A DNA stretch of 64,000 nt from a virus, in IMG/VR virus record IMGVR_UViG_3300006871_000008, positions 1 through 64,000 of that record. One strand, 5' to 3'. The notes below the pieces were generated by a model, which did no database searches, was not told the DNA's origin, and was given only the letters and a program-made list of their open reading frames with translations. Every line of letters starts with the position of its first letter. Position 1 is the stretch's first letter. Of this stretch, positions 3,155 to 13,827 are shown piece after piece. The translations under genes were made by a program, and so were the position numbers.

Positions 3155-3207
3155 GACTATCGTGGTCACGACGGGCGGCACGGCCACGACCCTCGACCAC
3201 GATAGTC
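3155..3207. repeat. 13-bp perfect inverted repeat with 27-nt spacer (copy 1)
   Basis: GACTATCGTGGTC...GACCACGATAGTC; second copy at 6556-6609. Confidence 0.85.
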
Positions 3208-3229: not shown

Positions 3230-3260
3230 AAAAAGAAACCCGGCATAAAGCCGGGTTTCC
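3230..3260 (-). terminator. intrinsic terminator after GATase gene
   Basis: GAAACCCGGC-TTTAT-GCCGGGTTTC followed by T run. Confidence 0.8.
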
Positions 3261-3319: not shown

Positions 3320-4228
3320 TTAGTCGGCGTATTCGCCAACATACTCACGCCACGCATCTTGCCACCGCTCGTCGTAATCCGGCACGTCGTTCCAGGGGTC
3401 ACGGTCCTTCAAGCCCATAAGAGCGGCATACTCGCTGTCCGGGTCACTGGCCTCAAAGGGGTCAGAAGTCGCGGAATCGTGGTACTTGCCGCTGCCGGTA
3501 CTTGTGCCACTGTTCTTAAAGCCGATGTACCGGCCACGACCACCGCCCTGCGTGCGACTGTCCCATTCCATCCAGGCTCCCCGACACTCAAGAGCCTTCA
3601 AGTTGGCGGTGTCGATACCACCCGCCGCATTGATCGAAAGCCGCATTGTCTCGCCTTCGGTAAAGGCGTGATACTCGATATTGCCGAGCGCGGCCTTCAA
3701 ATGCTTGTAGTCGGACGAGAAGTAATAAACGTCGCCGACCTTGCAAATGGCAAGGCAGTTATTGTGGGCTTGCAGATACAGCCCGGCCCCGTCAGTCCAG
3801 ACAAGACCCCAATAACCGGAAACATCGCCAAGAGCCTTTTGATAATCACCCTCGGCTTGGTGGATAGCGTCGATCAAATACATAGAATCGACAGCGTAGG
3901 TAGTCGGCGCGCCGACGATACCATTGTGCGCCCCGACGATGTTACCGTAGCGGAACGGGTGGGCGTTCTCCCGCACGTTATGGCCCCGCGTGCCGTGGCG
4001 AGTGTGCCCGGCGACGAACCATAGGCCGTTGCCCTCAGCCCCGGCAAGGTATTTGTTCAGCTTGTTACCCGTCAAGGCGTCGATGGGCGATTGCGCCCGC
4101 TTCCAGATTTTGCCGTCGCTGCCGAAGAATCCGATTGCTTCGTTTCCGCGCTCCGCATTGGCGAGAGCGAGTGTACGAAGCGCACCGAAGTCAGCACCCT
4201 TACCGATTGAGCCGAAGATTCCACACAT
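3320..4228 (-). CDS. class II (Ntn) glutamine amidotransferase
   Basis: N-terminal MCGIFG (Cys2 nucleophile), RG, HTRHGT, NAHPF, AHNG, VDS motifs; AAGGA SD. Confidence 0.92.
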   Translation of the reverse strand: MCGIFGSIGKGADFGALRTLALANAERGNEAIGFFGSDGKIWKRAQSPIDALTGNKLNKYLAGAEGNGLWFVAGHTRHGTRGHNVRENAHPFRYGNIVGAHNGIVGAPTTYAVDSMYLIDAIHQAEGDYQKALGDVSGYWGLVWTDGAGLYLQAHNNCLAICKVGDVYYFSSDYKHLKAALGNIEYHAFTEGETMRLSINAAGGIDTANLKALECRGAWMEWDSRTQGGGRGRYIGFKNSGTSTGSGKYHDSATSDPFEASDPDSEYAALMGLKDRDPWNDVPDYDERWQDAWREYVGEYAD

Positions 4229-4259
4229 GCTGTTTATTCCTTTGGATTGAGACTTGTTT

Positions 4260-4300
4260 TGGCAGACGGCTTACGGTCAACCCTTCGCCGTTGGCTGCCA
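4260..4300 (-). promoter_or_regulatory. structured 5' leader of GATase mRNA
   Basis: TGGCAG/CTGCCA and ACGGC/GCCGT stems starting at predicted TSS. Confidence 0.4.
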
Positions 4301-4308
4301 CTAACTAC

Positions 4309-4336
4309 ATTATACACCGGCCCCGCCCGTTGTCAA
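4309..4336 (-). promoter_or_regulatory. consensus sigma70 promoter for GATase
   Basis: TTGACA-N16-TATAAT; TGA in -35 is the amidoligase stop codon. Confidence 0.85.
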
Positions 4337-5799
4337 CTTGCCAGCACAAGATTTTGCTCCGCAATCATCCGGTCGAACGAAGTTTCCGATTCTATCGGTT
4401 GCTTCATCTTTGCGGCCCGCTTCATGTAGTACGACCGGAGTGTGCCGTCATCGCTGATAATATCCATAATGGCGGCAAACTTCTGCACCACGGACTTACC
4501 GGCAAACAAGTCATAAACCTCACGCTCCGGCAGCTTCGCCAGAGCATCGACAAACCGCGTATGGATTTTAACCCAATTGGCGACTTTATCGTAGTTGGTG
4601 GTTCCGCTGTGTAAACGGATTTCAACGGTATGGTGGCGCTGGTATGCCTGCCAGTTGAGCCAGTGGTAACGGTCGTCCGTTCTTTCCAGAATGTAGTTGA
4701 AGCCCTGCCCGCGAATGTCGTCAACCGAATAGGGCAGACGGTCGCAGTAGGAATTTCCGGCACGTTTCTTACTAACGAACCTTGCCCAAACATCCTCAGT
4801 CGCCGTATAACCGACAGCGACGGAAGCAAGCTGAGCATTGTTAAGGTCGCCACAATCGACGTGAACGTGGTAGCCGCAAGAGCTATCGACGGTCCAATCG
4901 TGTTCTCTGCCAAAGGCACACAAGTTGGAAACGGCCTCAAGACCCTCATCACCCTGCAAGACGGGTGACACGAATTCCTTGCCGCTAGACAAGGAACCAT
5001 CGTACTTAACGCCAAAGGGCGTTTTACCCCGTAGCCCGCCGTGATGCCTGCAACCGGAAATTTCCAACTCGACACCGAATTTGCGTTTGCTGCCGACGTT
5101 ATCGAATGTAGTGCCATCGACACGCCGACCTTGCTCCCACTCCGCTTCGTCGTCATCTTCGTCACAGGGCGAGCAGTTGGCACAGTACGCATCGCCGTCG
5201 TACTCGTCGGTGTAGGCAACATCGTCAAAGATGATAGCCTGCCCGCAACCGCAGCAAGTGGTAAACCTGCCGCTAAAGCACTCAGAGCAATAAAGCGCGG
5301 CATCGCCAGCAATCGGAGAAGCCTGCAACGCTGTAGTTTCGGTTTCAGCGCCACAAGCGGAGCAATGCGAATACAGCGACATATAGCAAGCCTCACAATG
5401 CGGTAGGTAAGAATCTTCGGCGTAGAACTCGCTGCCGACAGCGGTTTCCCGCTCGCAGGCGGCACAAGCCACAAATCGCTCCCCGTAGCAATCGCGGCAA
5501 AATTCGTGGTTATCGGCACTAGCCCGGCGTTCCGTCACGTCGGTATGCTCGCCGCATCCGGTACAAACGATGTAGTCGATACCCTCGCGTGGTGCTTCGG
5601 TGGGCAAGCGGCCTACTGGTGGCAGCCCGGCAGTCGGCAGCCCGCAGCCCGGCAGGACGTGCTGGCGCTCTACCATCGGCATTAGGACCGTGGCGGCGTG
5701 CCAATCGCTAGTCCATTGTGCGGGTGACGGTGCTGGCCGCTCGCGGCGTGCATTGCGGCGACTTCGGCGTAGCTCTTGTGTGCGGCGTGAACGTGGCAT
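4333..5799 (-). CDS. amidoligase (COOH-NH2 ligase, Amidoligase_2-like) with N-terminal repeated zinc ribbons
   Basis: FGVELE, DGSL, EFVSP, SCGYHVHV, LNW, TVEIRLHSGT motifs; 8 CxxC pairs upstream; leaderless start. Confidence 0.88.
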   Translation of the reverse strand: MPRSRRTQELRRSRRNARRERPAPSPAQWTSDWHAATVLMPMVERQHVLPGCGLPTAGLPPVGRLPTEAPREGIDYIVCTGCGEHTDVTERRASADNHEFCRDCYGERFVACAACERETAVGSEFYAEDSYLPHCEACYMSLYSHCSACGAETETTALQASPIAGDAALYCSECFSGRFTTCCGCGQAIIFDDVAYTDEYDGDAYCANCSPCDEDDDEAEWEQGRRVDGTTFDNVGSKRKFGVELEISGCRHHGGLRGKTPFGVKYDGSLSSGKEFVSPVLQGDEGLEAVSNLCAFGREHDWTVDSSCGYHVHVDCGDLNNAQLASVAVGYTATEDVWARFVSKKRAGNSYCDRLPYSVDDIRGQGFNYILERTDDRYHWLNWQAYQRHHTVEIRLHSGTTNYDKVANWVKIHTRFVDALAKLPEREVYDLFAGKSVVQKFAAIMDIISDDGTLRSYYMKRAAKMKQPIESETSFDRMIAEQNLVLAS

Positions 5800-5805
5800 A
5801 ACTAC

Positions 5806-5833
5806 ACTATAACCTATCGCGTCGTGTTGTCAA
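5806..5833 (-). promoter_or_regulatory. sigma70-type promoter (leaderless amidoligase)
   Basis: TTGACA-N16-TATAGT, ATG at +7. Confidence 0.85.
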
Positions 5834-5834
5834 G

Positions 5835-5906
5835 AGGCACTTGTTGGAATCGGACCAACTTAGCCCGGTTGGAAACCGGGAACATCGCCAGCAATGTTTA
5901 AGTGCC
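5835..5906 (-). tRNA. atypical tRNA-Gly(UCC)
   Basis: GGCACTT/AAGTGCC acceptor, ACAT/ATGT D stem, CCCGG-TT TCC AA-CCGGG anticodon arm, GTTGG-TCCGATT-CCAAC T arm, U73; A8/U14 and C55 non-canonical; no CCA. Confidence 0.8.
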
Positions 5907-5911
5907 AAAAG

Positions 5912-6010
5912 TTGCAGGGCGGGGAGTCGAACCCCGATAGCGGCGCGCTCGCGCTGTCCTTGTCCGGTGTTTACGACCTTGCGGTTCGCACCCTATTAGA
6001 CGACCCTGCC
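5912..6010 (-). ncRNA. tRNA-like RNA lacking a canonical anticodon loop, with hairpin inserted in the D-loop
   Basis: GCAGGG/CCCTGC acceptor, CGGGG-TTCGACT-CCCCG T arm, GTCT/GGAC D stem, inserted GCAA-tetraloop hairpin. Confidence 0.7.
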
Positions 6011-6019
6011 ATGTTTGCC

Positions 6020-6205
6020 TTAGTTGCGGAAGTACCGGGACAGGGCGAATAGCGCGATGCCGACCGCCGACAAGTCACGGAACGCAAAACCCTGCAAGTA
6101 GGGCGAAACGGCAAGATAGTTGCTCGCCAGCCAAACCATGCCAGGGACGATAACCGACGCTGCCAGCAAAATGCCGACAATGTGCGCGAAAGTGGCCTTC
6201 GCCAT
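6020..6205 (-). CDS. small two-TM membrane protein
   Basis: two hydrophobic stretches; GGAG SD. Confidence 0.7.
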   Translation of the reverse strand: MAKATFAHIVGILLAASVIVPGMVWLASNYLAVSPYLQGFAFRDLSAVGIALFALSRYFRN

Positions 6206-6250
6206 AAACGTACTCCGATGTTGAGAAGTGGAAAGTTTCGACTACACTCC

Positions 6251-6278
6251 ATTATACCGCGCTTTGGTCCGTTGTCAA
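6251..6278 (-). promoter_or_regulatory. consensus promoter upstream of membrane protein and tRNA-like pair
   Basis: TTGACA-N16-TATAAT. Confidence 0.85.
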
Positions 6279-6492: not shown

Positions 6493-6555
6493 ATCGGCCC
6501 GCAAAGATTTCCGTTGACCTTGTAACTAGGGCGCACGCGAAAGCCAATAATGCCA

Positions 6556-6609
6556 ACTGTCGTGGTCATGCCGTTCGCTGGCGTGGGCCTCCGTCTTGAC
6601 CACGATAGT
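6556..6609. repeat. 13-bp inverted repeat with 28-nt spacer (copy 2)
   Basis: ACTGTCGTGGTCA...TGACCACGATAGT. Confidence 0.8.
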
Positions 6610-6654
6610 CAATAATCTTAATATAGTCGATACAATTAGGATAGTCGCTACAAT
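6605..6654. repeat. three ATAGTC-led direct repeats at 18-bp period in AT-rich DNA
   Basis: ATAGTCAATAAT 6605, ATAGTCGATACAAT 6623, ATAGTCGCTACAAT 6641. Confidence 0.7.
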
Positions 6655-7341: not shown

Positions 7342-7389
7342 AGCGCTAAGCGCCGGCAAGCGCTAAGCGCCGGCAAGCGCTAAGCGCCG
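7342..7389. repeat. 17-bp tandem repeat (~2.8 copies)
   Basis: unit AGCGCTAAGCGCCGGCA. Confidence 0.9.
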
Positions 7390-7820
7390 TCAGCCGGTGG
7401 CGTCGGAATTTCTATTACATTCGGTGCAATCGGCACGCCCGGCTTGAGCAAGCGCCGCTTCTCTTTAGGCAACTTCTCCCGGTTCAACTTCTCCGGGTCG
7501 TCGCTGTTGGTCGTCCATGATTCGTGGTAAGTGCCGCAGCGCACGGTGCGGTAGGCTTCGTGGCCCTCGAATACGTCGTGCCAGTCCAGCCTGTAGCCGC
7601 CGTTCTGCCAGTCTCGTTTCGGAAGCGCTCGGATATGTCGCTGTGTCCGATAGTCCAAGACGCGGAATCCTTCTGGCGTGTCAATCCAGAATATAAGCTG
7701 GTCACACTGATAGCTGCAATCGTCGTCAGCGTACAGGTGATTCAACTCGATAATGTCAACGGTGTCGCGGCGTGTGCCGCTCGGCTGCGGCACTATTGAA
7801 AGTAGTAGCAGCGCGATCAT
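7380..7820 (-). CDS. exported hypothetical protein (planctomycete-type family)
   Basis: hydrophobic N-terminus; VDIIELNH..DQLIFW..WHD..ESWT..DPE motifs recalled from planctomycete proteins. Confidence 0.65.
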   Translation of the reverse strand: MIALLLLSIVPQPSGTRRDTVDIIELNHLYADDDCSYQCDQLIFWIDTPEGFRVLDYRTQRHIRALPKRDWQNGGYRLDWHDVFEGHEAYRTVRCGTYHESWTTNSDDPEKLNREKLPKEKRRLLKPGVPIAPNVIEIPTPPADGA

Positions 7821-8032: not shown

Positions 8033-8318
8033 TCTTCGCCCCATTGAACATAATCCAAGTGAAACCGCTGCCTACGTCGTCATCGGTCGTGCCGATAACC
8101 ATGTAGCGCCCATCGGGGAAGTCGATGATGCGGCCAAACGATGCCTCACCATGCGAAGCGCGGCAATACGGGGCCAGCAACTCCACGATTTTAGCGCCCA
8201 CTTCAACCGGGATGGGAGTATCGAATTGTGTCCATTCCCGCTGCGTATTCTCTACACACTCGCGGGCCATATGACTGTCGCGGGTCGATACGCCGTGGAT
8301 GCAAGTTTCAGGTGGCAC
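8025..8318 (-). CDS. hypothetical protein
   Basis: ORF, GTG start with AAGGA SD. Confidence 0.6.
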   Translation of the reverse strand: MPPETCIHGVSTRDSHMARECVENTQREWTQFDTPIPVEVGAKIVELLAPYCRASHGEASFGRIIDFPDGRYMVIGTTDDDVGSGFTWIMFNGAKNG

Positions 8319-8853
8319 GGCCTGTTTCCTTCTCGTAGAGTTTCAGAACGCGGGTCAACTCGCTACGCTTGTGCGGCGTGCCGCCAAAATTCATTTGCAG
8401 ATACCACGCCAGCACTTCGCGGCGGGTGCGAAGCTGATTGACGTTAAACAGCAAGTCAAGATTTGCCATACGTGGCTTGTCCGTGTACTCGCGGTAATAG
8501 CTGCCAAACACCTTTAGCTCGTTCGCGATGAACAGGCGAAACGACTCGATGCGCTGCTTGCCGTCAACTAGAACAAAGTCGCCAGTGTAGTCTCGCTGCC
8601 AACCGGGATGGTTGAAGTAAATGATGCGGCCAGTCTTGCCGCCGCTGAACCAGTATTCGAGCCATGCGACTCTCTGCCGCTTTGTCCAGACGTGCGGGCG
8701 TTGGAAGTCCGGGTCAAGATTCAGCTTGCCTTCGCTGTCCTTCTGATGCCGCTCAATCCACGGCATGATGTAGTCAAAGGGTATGTTGACTTGATAATCG
8801 CCATCGCGGATGCGCTGCGGAATGTCGGTGAACTTCGTGATTTTCTTGCTCAT
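8308..8853 (-). CDS. stand-alone DUF262 (GmrSD N-terminal, ParB/Srx-like) domain protein
   Basis: PDFQRPHVW, VDGKQR, terminal NFGGTP motifs. Confidence 0.8.
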   Translation of the reverse strand: MSKKITKFTDIPQRIRDGDYQVNIPFDYIMPWIERHQKDSEGKLNLDPDFQRPHVWTKRQRVAWLEYWFSGGKTGRIIYFNHPGWQRDYTGDFVLVDGKQRIESFRLFIANELKVFGSYYREYTDKPRMANLDLLFNVNQLRTRREVLAWYLQMNFGGTPHKRSELTRVLKLYEKETGRAT

Positions 8854-9176
8854 TTCGCAGGCTCCCGCACAAAGTTTGGTAGCCCGCACGCCTCAACGAT
8901 CAGGCGGCGCATCCAACTGGCCCGCCGCCCTCGGCGTCGATAGTTGCCCGCAGCCGTGTAGAAGTCATTGACGTTGGTTGGACTCTCGCGCTCGAACCGC
9001 TCAGCCGCATATTGTCGCGTTTCTTTCGGGTGACGCAGTTGGGCGACAAGGTAGTAAATCGGCTGATCTGTCCCGTATCGCTCGCCGATAATCGCTCCGC
9101 CGTCATTGTACCGAAATGGCACGCCCTCATTGCGAAGCTGTTTGACGTGCCGCAGTATGTCTTTGAATCGTACCAT
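8850..9176 (-). CDS. hypothetical protein (leaderless)
   Basis: ORF; ATG at +7. Confidence 0.7.
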   Translation of the reverse strand: MVRFKDILRHVKQLRNEGVPFRYNDGGAIIGERYGTDQPIYYLVAQLRHPKETRQYAAERFERESPTNVNDFYTAAGNYRRRGRRASWMRRLIVEACGLPNFVREPAK

Positions 9177-12493: not shown

Positions 12494-12714
12494 TCTTTCA
12501 CTTCCACCACGTCAAAGGAAGGTACTCGCGCTCCATTGTCTAACCAGAGCGTGTAATACGGGTCTGCCTCTGCGAATCCTTGATGGTATTCCGCAGAAGC
12601 GACTCGCGCTGTCACCAGCTTCGGAGTTATGTCTAACACAAAATCGCCATTTGCCCTACGAACCGCAACTGTATCCGGCTTGCCAGCATAGGCTACTAAA
12701 GTTCCACGTTTCAT
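12490..12714 (-). CDS. hypothetical protein
   Basis: ATGA-coupled ORF. Confidence 0.6.
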   Translation of the reverse strand: MKRGTLVAYAGKPDTVAVRRANGDFVLDITPKLVTARVASAEYHQGFAEADPYYTLWLDNGARVPSFDVVEVKE

Positions 12715-13079
12715 CGACGCCACACTCCGCTCTTGATTTCAACGCCGCTTAGTCGCCCGACGTGATTGGCGATGTAGGCCCACACGTCAATCGTGTCGCC
12801 CTTCTGGTCATGCACTATTACCCGCTCGCGGGTGTAAAGGCCACGATTCACACCCTCGATAACGTCGAGATAGTTCAGAATGTCGTCGTCAACGCGATAC
12901 ACTTCGCCCGTCACTTCGATACCCTTCTCTGACCGCACAAGGGCCGGGAACGCACCCAGGTCAACCAGCTTGAACGCCGCAGGCGTCTTGTAGTTGCCGA
13001 CGTAGGTGCAGCCCTGGATAACGTAATGAAGCGCGAAGTCGGCTTTAAGCGTGCCGTATGCAAACAGTAGTTCAGTCAT
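12711..13079 (-). CDS. gamma-glutamylcyclotransferase (AIG2-like)
   Basis: LFAYGTLK, LGAFPAL, VTGEVY, LDVIEG, YTR motifs; GGGAGG SD. Confidence 0.9.
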   Translation of the reverse strand: MTELLFAYGTLKADFALHYVIQGCTYVGNYKTPAAFKLVDLGAFPALVRSEKGIEVTGEVYRVDDDILNYLDVIEGVNRGLYTRERVIVHDQKGDTIDVWAYIANHVGRLSGVEIKSGVWRR

Positions 13080-13827
13080 TGTTGGCCCATCCTCCCGCCA
13101 TGCAGATTTCGGGTTCTGGCTGCTCCGGTGCTGGCGGCTTCGGCGGCGCAGGCTTGCCCCAATAGTTCGGCGGCGGGACGTTCGCCAGCCATAAAATTTC
13201 GCCGTGGGCCTGGATTCCCACAATCTTGCCGCAATCGTTTTCAACCCGGAATTGAGACTCGTCTGTGTACGCAGCCTTAATGTCCTTGAAGCACTTGATG
13301 CAAGTCCCAAGTGTTCCAGCTTCCAACACCATATCGACCGGCTTCATTCCAGCGCCGGTATCGTTGTAAATCATTTCACGGACGACCAGCCGGTAGGAAT
13401 TGGGCGGCGGGGCAACGTAATTGCCCGCACCCTTGCACCAGCCGCACTGTTCCGTCACTATGTAGCCCATCGAACTTGACACGTACTCCATCTTACCCTT
13501 GTTGCCCTTACATTTCGGGCAAACGTCAAAGGTCTGGTAATACGCCTGCAAGTAATGCGGCTCCCCGGCTTCCTTCATACGCTCCCGCCAGTGCCGCACA
13601 ACTCCAATCGACCAGTTGATATGGCCGCTGATTAGTTGGTACGTACCGATTGGAGCGTATATGCCATCTTCACCGAGTTTGCTGATCGTGCGAGCATCCT
13701 TTAGATAGGTCGTGCCGCGAAGCTGGCTGTACGCCGCTTTGATTGCGTTGGTGATACTGTCGTAGCTCCCGGTCGATACGCAGAGCGAATCGGTGACGAG
13801 ATACGGTAGTCTGTTGTTATTTTCCAT
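13072..13827 (-). CDS. hypothetical protein with DnaJ-type CxxCxGxG finger and VPPPNYW domain (leaderless)
   Basis: CPKCKGNKG...CGWCKGAG; ATG at +7. Confidence 0.75.
   Translation of the reverse strand: MENNNRLPYLVTDSLCVSTGSYDSITNAIKAAYSQLRGTTYLKDARTISKLGEDGIYAPIGTYQLISGHINWSIGVVRHWRERMKEAGEPHYLQAYYQTFDVCPKCKGNKGKMEYVSSSMGYIVTEQCGWCKGAGNYVAPPPNSYRLVVREMIYNDTGAGMKPVDMVLEAGTLGTCIKCFKDIKAAYTDESQFRVENDCGKIVGIQAHGEILWLANVPPPNYWGKPAPPKPPAPEQPEPEICMAGGWANND

Follow-up and report, generated by a model that had tools for sequence, protein, structure and literature searches.

Organization of the locus

The DNA analysed here, positions 1 to 64,000 of the IMG/VR virus record IMGVR_UViG_3300006871_000008 (this whole stretch of 64,000 nucleotides is referred to as the window), carries on its minus strand a block of genes in which a small tRNA-like RNA devoid of an anticodon loop, termed here the tRNA mimic, lies next to a tRNA-Gly(UCC) gene and upstream of the genes for an amidoligase and a class-II glutamine amidotransferase (GATase). 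Judged from sequence comparisons, the mimic is a small RNA gene that is both real and conserved and for which we found no earlier description; it is tRNA-derived, with its acceptor, T arm and elbow intact. The window represents the first 64 kb of a linear 90.8-kb record with an estimated completeness of 89%, and its genes are mostly oriented on the minus strand.

In the direction of transcription, the block opens with a sigma-70-type promoter (TTGACA-16-TATAAT; positions 6251–6278; 12/12 matches to the consensus) that precedes an open reading frame (ORF) of 61 amino acids (aa; 6020–6205), the mimic (about 5907–6012; ~105 nt) and tRNA-Gly(UCC) (5835–5906). The 61-aa ORF contains two hydrophobic segments and putatively encodes a small membrane protein; it has no Pfam or PHROG match and no tblastn match in the related loci L053 to L055, and is hence not conserved in relatives. 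The two RNA genes are separated by a gap of 5 nt. A second promoter (TTGACA-16-TATAGT; 5806–5833; 11/12) precedes the gene for the amidoligase (4333–5799; 488 aa). Only one or two bases lie between tRNA-Gly and the -35 hexamer of this promoter, which indeed abuts the 3' end of the tRNA. The promoter of the GATase gene (4309–4336; 12/12), which is conserved in L054 (3049–3076, also 12/12), overlaps the amidoligase stop codon and is followed by the reading frame for the 302-aa GATase-like protein (3320–4228). An intrinsic-terminator-like hairpin with a U-run (~3230–3259; GAAACCCGGC...GCCGGGUUUC then UUUUU) closes the block; it was read from the sequence, and the consensus scan that found the promoters did not list the hairpin at 3259–3230.

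All the parts named in the initial annotation of this locus were thus recovered on the minus strand by ARAGORN, the ORF list, a promoter scan and inspection of the sequence. A single transcription unit is not supported, because each gene of the block has a sigma-70-type promoter of its own.

A conserved tRNA-like RNA without an anticodon loop

Both RNA genes are real. The tRNA-Gly is recognized by ARAGORN and Rfam, and the mimic is conserved in two related metagenome contigs: among approximately 1 Mb of related loci, blastn detected relatives in L054 (941–1046; 79% identity; E = 8e-17) and L055 (193–293; 76%; E = 2e-12). These nucleotide identities of 76–79% compare with 75–77% for the catalytic core of the amidoligase and 73% for the GATase gene, and the small ORFs and spacers around the RNA are unalignable. 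Across the mimic-bearing phages, the proteins are 55–69% identical.

The consensus fold of the three members comprises an acceptor stem of 6 bp (GCAGGG/CCCUGC) plus a 1:72 mismatch, a discriminator A without an encoded CCA, and a perfect T arm with a 5-bp stem and the loop UUCGACU (UUCRACU across the three members). The D loop holds a hairpin-bearing insert (GGUG-hairpin-UAAA-CACC), and in all three members the anticodon arm is replaced by a GC hairpin with a 4-nt loop, leaving no 7-nt anticodon loop. Both the structured D-loop insert and the tetraloop that takes the place of the anticodon are unusual. Read from the 5' end, the segments shared by all three RNAs are A or G at position 1, GCAGGG, UC, GUCU, a loop part of 5–6 nt and GGUG; in the middle a variable hairpin, UAAA (or UAAU), CACC, GGA-N2-A and GGAC; and towards the 3' end the GC-rich hairpin with its 4-nt loop, YAU, the 5-bp T stem, CCCUGC, A, the discriminator A and CU. 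Pairing of the D stem with the first GGAC could be ruled out, since L054 has GGAA at this place; the D-type stem must consequently use the second GGAC, which yields a GUCU/GGAC stem typical of tRNA-Glu. In the consensus fold, two compensatory pairs turn the T stem from CG.../...CG into GC.../...GC, the inner hairpin has three different sequences each of which folds, and the GC hairpin swaps its outer pairs.

A covariance model of the mimic (R1) scores its members at 106–127 bits, as high as expected for a model that was built from those three members, and ordinary tRNAs at ~28 bits or less. ARAGORN does not call the mimic at default settings, RF00005 does not match it at E values up to 10, and it belongs to no Rfam family; standard annotation by these tools therefore misses RNAs of this kind. 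In folding energy, the mimic does not stand out from shuffled sequences (z = -0.69).

Other identities of the RNA were considered and rejected. A transfer-messenger RNA (tmRNA) comprises a tag frame and has ~300–400 nt; the mimic has only 105 nt, and its T arm alone matches the beta_tmRNA model, at 9 bits. A tmRNA call that ARAGORN made on the mimic at low threshold is spurious. MAFFT places the CGUAAAC of the mimic opposite the anticodon loops of tRNA-Leu, and its T arm is identical to that of phage tRNA-Leu genes; a decoding tRNA-Leu(UAA) with an insert is nevertheless ruled out, because the surrounding stem is not conserved and U33 is absent.

Searches beyond the related loci brought no further members to light. 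A 14-mer of the mimic has at least 116 chance stretches in IMG/VR, and the 80 that became loci proved by R1 to hold only ordinary tRNAs; of two longer patterns, one gave a chance match inside a giant ORF and the other none. All eight matches of mimic patterns in GTDB genomes failed R1. In the literature, we found no description of the mimic RNA or of a pairing between an amidoligase and a tRNA.

The neighboring tRNA-Gly(UCC) is probably an accessory tRNA

The initial annotation had regarded both RNAs as atypical. The mimic is a conserved RNA without an anticodon; the tRNA-Gly, odd at some of its positions, reads as an accessory tRNA. It scores 43.5 bits with the Rfam model RF00005 against a threshold of 29 bits when the region is searched alone (the gathering run over the whole window missed it), and it possesses four regular stems, the anticodon loop UUUCCAA with U33 and the anticodon UCC, and a discriminator U73 without an encoded CCA. 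Its peculiarities are A8/U14 instead of U8/A14, the T loop UCCGAUU with C55, and G2:C71. It thus lacks the universal U8, A14 and U55; the 8:14 pair is swapped rather than lost, so that the tertiary pair would be kept.

The genome encodes four tRNAs in three places (Gly-UCC, Ile-GAU, Glu-UUC and Thr-UGU), none with an encoded CCA, and the Rfam score of tRNA-Gly is the lowest of these (67 bits for Ile-GAU, 49 for Glu-UUC and 55 for Thr-UGU). GGA and GGG together account for 29% of the glycine codons in the phage ORFs, a value that speaks neither for nor against a translational role. The tRNA-Gly gene is absent from L053 to L055, the three closest loci, and its odd T-loop pattern has no relative in IMG/VR. 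Given this absence from the closest relatives, it does not belong to a conserved unit; the proposed tandem of tRNAs is not supported, as the tRNA-Gly is missing from precisely those two closest loci that carry the mimic. The tRNA-Gly is a real but slightly odd tRNA and an ordinary passenger of the block, probably an accessory tRNA for translation that this phage alone gained, at an intergenic site close to a promoter.

The amidoligase and GATase represent a known phage enzyme module

The assignment of the enzyme pair to the phiEco32-type amidoligase/GATase kind was borne out by PF12224 and PHROG matches and by the presence of a gene for a gamma-glutamyl cyclotransferase (GGCT) in the same genome. 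The amidoligase matches PF12224 (Amidoligase_2) with 72 bits against a cut-off of 22 bits over residues 273–416 (E = 8.9e-20), and the PHROG amidoligase family at 3e-27. Its closest homologues are 47–68% identical. It is built from an Arg-rich N-terminal tail, four CxxC...CxxC zinc-finger repeats (LIM-like), an acidic linker and the Amidoligase_2 domain. In an alignment of homologues, eight Cys residues of the N-terminus, arranged in CxxC pairs, are invariant, and all 17 homologues share residues E244, E246, H311, H313, E393 and R395; for these E/H/R residues we infer a catalytic role. Profile searches against PDB sequences returned weak LIM-like matches for the N-terminus (2e-4) and no match for the ligase core. 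In L055, the interval between the RNA and the amidoligase gene (314–491) contains a small ORF with a single zinc-finger unit (YVDGYDGYRYCGECAP) that resembles one of the N-terminal repeats of the amidoligase.

The start of the amidoligase gene has a feature of its own. Its ATG lies 6 nt past the -10 hexamer in the window (5797–5811), in L054 (TAGAAT; 1494–1508) and in L055 (TAGGAT; 486–500), without a Shine-Dalgarno sequence. This spacing predicts a leaderless amidoligase mRNA. The -10/ATG spacing is also 6 nt at an 80-aa ORF of L054 (1214–1228). Leaderless early mRNAs thus seem to be a conserved trait within this group of phages.

The GATase starts with MCGIFG, the nucleophile Cys directly following the initiator Met, as it does in locus L061, and also contains an HNG motif. 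Its residues 1–147 match PHROG 4736 at 4.9e-16; the protein also matches NCBIfam models at their GlmS/PurF N-terminus with 4.5e-7 to 8e-4, far under the whole-protein cut-offs; no Pfam match was obtained at E 0.01, and no known family matched the C-terminal half. Its tblastn matches are phage GATases. An orthologue with 69% identity directly follows the amidoligase gene in L053 and L054, the two genes are adjacent in the window, L053, L054 and L061, and a GATase homologue is co-located with a zinc-finger amidoligase in most related loci that have enough flank. The GGCT gene (AIG2/GGACT; 12711–13310, minus strand; PF06094, E = 5.1e-22) lies 7 kb from the block.

An amidoligase together with a GATase and/or a GGCT also occurs in phage tf, Kuravirus, a Zobellviridae phage, Arthrobacter phage Wheelbite and a Bacillus phage, and a Porphyromonas phage locus has the amidoligase alone; no tRNA or tRNA-like gene is present near the module in these six cultured-phage loci. 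The amidoligase/class-II GATase/GGCT set of phiEco32-type phages is credited to earlier work (Iyer et al., 2009, as cited in PMC10580990), and annotations of it exist for Pseudomonas phage tf, Kuravirus and Arthrobacter phage Wheelbite. The amidoligase and class-II GATase, with the GGCT elsewhere, are therefore a known and widespread module of phiEco32-type phages that needs no RNA. From the protein families, we infer that the GATase most likely supplies ammonia and that the ATP-dependent COOH-NH2 ligase would make an amide or gamma-glutamyl-type bond on a host or phage target.

Setting in the phage genome

The genome encodes a tape-measure protein, a PolA-type polymerase, a helicase, a primase, a gpA-type terminase, a P22-type coat protein and ClpP, a gene set that identifies a tailed phage; the source of the block is an uncultured soil phage of siphovirus type, from rhizosphere metagenomes. 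Among the public sequencing runs searched, rhizosphere metagenome DNA runs of 2017, perhaps the source sample itself, contain the same sequence, no RNA run with the phage sequence is listed, and contigs from the matching rhizosphere runs show neither variants nor joints. The DNA of the block has no match in 50,697 phage records, and a single-protein scan of IMG/VR gave none either. Around the block, 14 consensus sigma-70 promoter sites were observed on the minus strand versus 3.2 expected, a richness characteristic of early regions that the host RNA polymerase transcribes.

Three further sequence features lie in this part of the window. Two inverted-arm cassettes (3155–3207 and 6555–6610), which have 13-bp arms (GACTATCGTGGTC / GACCACGATAGTC) and unrelated spacers of 27–30 nt, bracket the block from the small ORFs to the GATase gene, and no other copies are found in the window; a similarly built inverted repeat with other arms (ATAGGGGTCG / CGACCCCTAT) and a spacer of ~27 nt is situated just before the RNA promoter of L054 (~760–810). 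Such cassettes could be candidate operator, RNase III or recombination sites. A 17-nt repeat (AGCGCTAAGCGCCGGCA) is present three times in tandem at 7342–7392, just upstream of the early block. The early region also includes a 193-aa ORF (8308–8889) with a GmrSD_N (DUF262-type) domain (PF03235, 1.8e-10); this domain normally belongs to modified-DNA-dependent restriction enzymes.

Possible roles of the tRNA mimic

The existence, conservation, architecture and genomic context of the parts described above are the footing for what follows, in which the biochemical steps are proposals. We favor, at a probability of roughly 55%, a view of the block as a string of separately promoted early genes, with no dedicated RNA-enzyme machine, in which the mimic would work apart from the enzymes, as a decoy that imitates a tRNA or as a processing signal. 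The mimic would be a gene in its own right that is made early; either RNase P or transcription initiation would define its 5' end, and 3' trimming would proceed as in tRNAs. It retains the acceptor, T arm and elbow recognized by tRNA-handling proteins but cannot decode. In our preferred reading, it would as a stable RNA occupy a tRNA-binding protein through its invariant insert GGUG...UAAA-CACC-GGA. That this partner is a host factor or a defence protein is a tentative suggestion. RNAs of the mimic type may thus be decoys for tRNA-binding host proteins or processing signals.

Several observations weigh against such an independent role. The mimic lies upstream of the amidoligase gene in all three phages that possess it, at a distance of 113 nt in the window, ~460 nt in L054 and ~205 nt in L055, even though the surrounding small ORFs differ. 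Its D stem (GUCU/GGAC) is tRNA-Glu-like, alongside the glutamine/glutamyl chemistry of the enzymes. The Arg-rich tail of the amidoligase, with 9–13 Arg/Lys among the first 40 residues, is restricted to this clade, ~65 other relatives being without it. L061, whose amidoligase is 36% identical, contains a 121-nt insert-bearing tRNA-like gene (4536–4657) that lies precisely between the stop codon of the amidoligase gene and the promoter of the GATase gene. Moreover, the family counts three members, so that the covariation support for the fold is thin.

These observations lend themselves to the interpretation put forward in the initial annotation, in which the RNAs serve as dedicated amino-acid carriers, substrates or scaffolds for the enzymes. 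Restricted to the mimic, without the tRNA-Gly, and to the Arg-rich zinc-finger amidoligase with its GATase as partners, we consider it unlikely, if still the best of the alternatives. As a carrier, the mimic would be kept off the ribosome by the 1:72 mismatch and the missing anticodon, and the chemistry would resemble that of GatCAB, with an ATP-activated carboxylate and glutamine-derived ammonia. A 1:72 mismatch would disfavor EF-Tu, and an Arg-rich tail is a typical RNA-binding feature. The argument for such a partnership is that the RNA has kept its place upstream of the amidoligase despite turnover of the intervening ORFs (tRNA-Gly in the window, the 80-aa ORF in L054 and the small zinc-finger ORF in L055), that its conservation equals that of the catalytic core of the amidoligase, and that the Arg-rich tail is limited to the same clade. 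The tRNA-Glu of the phage has the same D arm as the mimic and is the sole other R1 match in the genome (26 bits). If the partnership were true, phages would possess a tRNA-mimic-dependent amide-ligation pathway, of which the tRNA-like gene of L061 would be a further example. The amidoligase/GATase pair is common in phages, yet its target has escaped detection so far; with an RNA partner, there would then be a handle on that target.

In the L061 module, the independent tRNA-like gene comprises a D arm, a T arm and a 7-bp acceptor free of mismatches, and 64 nt occupy the site of the 17-nt anticodon arm; it scores 35.7 bits with the Rfam tRNA model, and ARAGORN accepts it solely as a tRNA-Leu(UAA) that carries 37 additional nt at position 31/32. 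Against a partnership, the L061 RNA is unrelated to the mimic in sequence and sits elsewhere in the module, and the amidoligase of L061 lacks the Arg-rich tail. No homologue of this RNA gene was found among the related loci examined.

The other evidence against a partnership comes from the distribution of the RNA. The three mimic-bearing phages are syntenic relatives, so that the adjacency of RNA and amidoligase counts as one evolutionary event. A search for co-occurrence with the R1 model, the check that had been suggested for the proposed pairing, placed the mimic upstream of the amidoligase in the three phages of the clade and found it absent from ~105 other unique amidoligase loci; together with the six cultured-phage loci, which likewise have the module without the mimic, this gives no support to the pairing as a general rule. 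With regard to tRNA-type genes at large, ARAGORN listed 6 in 151 kb within 1 kb of the module and 10 in 422 kb at a distance of 1–6 kb among 107 unique loci; the former count becomes 8 in 151 kb when the two R1 copies that ARAGORN misses are included, an excess of at most 2-fold that is not significant. The separate promoters of the genes and the lack from the mimic of GluRS identity elements (anticodon, 1:72/2:71) also speak against a partnership, and to our knowledge no member of the Amidoligase_2 family is tRNA-dependent. Neither the amidoligase nor the GATase matches a Fem/GNAT transferase or GatB/E domain in Pfam, and among the families listed for the 83 other ORFs, namely the 25 families matched by most members, there is no such domain and no tRNA-dependent transferase, aminoacyl-tRNA synthetase-like or RNA-repair family.

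Two other RNA genes were seen in phages with amidoligase genes. A 130-nt insert-bearing tRNA-like gene is present in L005 (163–295), where ARAGORN reports tRNA-Asp(AUC) with a 54-nt insert; this 147-kb phage has two amidoligase genes, the nearer of which is 5.5 kb away, so that such tRNA-like genes also occur far from the module. In L012/L075 (4617–4965), a phage tmRNA (tag AKPSFAMAA) is found ~0.8 kb upstream of a zinc-finger amidoligase gene on a contig of 105–134 kb.

Similarly doubtful, and at best on a par with the enzyme partnership, is a role of the mimic mainly in cis, as a punctuation or stability element in the manner of the t-elements of plant mitochondria, with no role for the released RNA. 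In read-through early transcripts, cleavage at the mimic by RNase P and RNase Z would free the upstream mRNA and separate it from the leaderless amidoligase message. The position of the RNA fits such a function: in the window it begins 10 nt past the stop codon of the 61-aa ORF, and in L055 it overlaps that of the ORF in front of it; no terminator lies between the four tandem promoters and the terminator behind the GATase gene; and the only canonical portions of the mimic, the acceptor, T arm and elbow, are the determinants of RNase P and RNase Z. Yet the GGUG...UAAA-CACC-GGA insert and the GC hairpin, which processing does not need, are kept with compensatory changes. In L054, furthermore, a predicted promoter (TTGACT-16-TAAGAT) ends 7 nt before the first base of the RNA, so that the RNA directly follows its promoter, with no upstream ORF in that transcript; this RNA-promoter region is homologous to positions 6536–6480 of the window. 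The differing upstream contexts in the window, L054 and L055 indicate that the RNA was kept while its transcriptional surroundings changed.

Finally, it is improbable that the mimic is a decaying tRNA gene of tRNA-Glu or tRNA-Leu origin that acquired insertions and has no present function: its rejection by ARAGORN and Rfam, its unremarkable folding energy and the frequency of broken tRNA genes in phage genomes would fit, but an RNA conserved at the level of a catalytic domain among phages with such divergent proteins, whose stems have been preserved through compensatory changes amid intergenic flanks that do not align, does not resemble a decaying gene. We leave the remainder of the odds to a mimic that has no function or does something else, and return to the independently acting decoy or processing signal as the preferred view.

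Comparison with known systems

The enzymes resemble the phiEco32-type set in that an Amidoligase_2 protein adjoins an Ntn-type GATase, an AIG2-type GGCT is encoded in the same genome, and the genes occupy the early/middle region of a lytic-type phage. They differ from it by the four LIM-like zinc-finger repeats and the clade-specific Arg-rich tail of the amidoligase and by the distance of 7 kb to the GGCT gene, and neither a second COOH-NH2 ligase nor an ATP-grasp gene was noticed. The tRNA-Gly, in turn, passes the threshold of RF00005 and has the regular stems, U33, UCC anticodon and U73 in common with canonical phage tRNAs, from which A8/U14, C55, G2:C71 and the lowest of the four scores in the genome set it apart.

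With FemXAB, which uses non-proteinogenic tRNA-Gly, and with GatCAB and GatDE, the block shares the idea alone, namely a tRNA-type RNA, here with a 1:72 mismatch, beside amide-forming enzymes. A tRNA gene conserved beside the enzyme across relatives, as a Fem/GatB-type system would have it, was not found in the loci compared, the tRNA-Gly being absent from relatives and the mimic restricted to its clade, and charging of either RNA is a proposal.

The closest parallels to the mimic are anticodon-less RNAs in which the acceptor, T arm and elbow were kept, decoding was lost and the ends are probably processed by the tRNA enzymes of the host: the tRNA-like domain of tmRNA, the modules of YrlA, mascRNA, the t-elements and the pseudo-tRNA 'tRNA-Other' of Bacillus cereus (PMC3399842). 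Unlike the YrlA Y-RNA, the phage mimic is open at its acceptor ends, and unlike tmRNA it has no mRNA part. From the known anticodon-less mimics it is distinguished by its structured D-loop insert and its tetraloop hairpin, and by being phage-encoded and restricted to one clade. It hence adds a well-defined and conserved member to the poorly charted class of non-decoding phage tRNA look-alikes.

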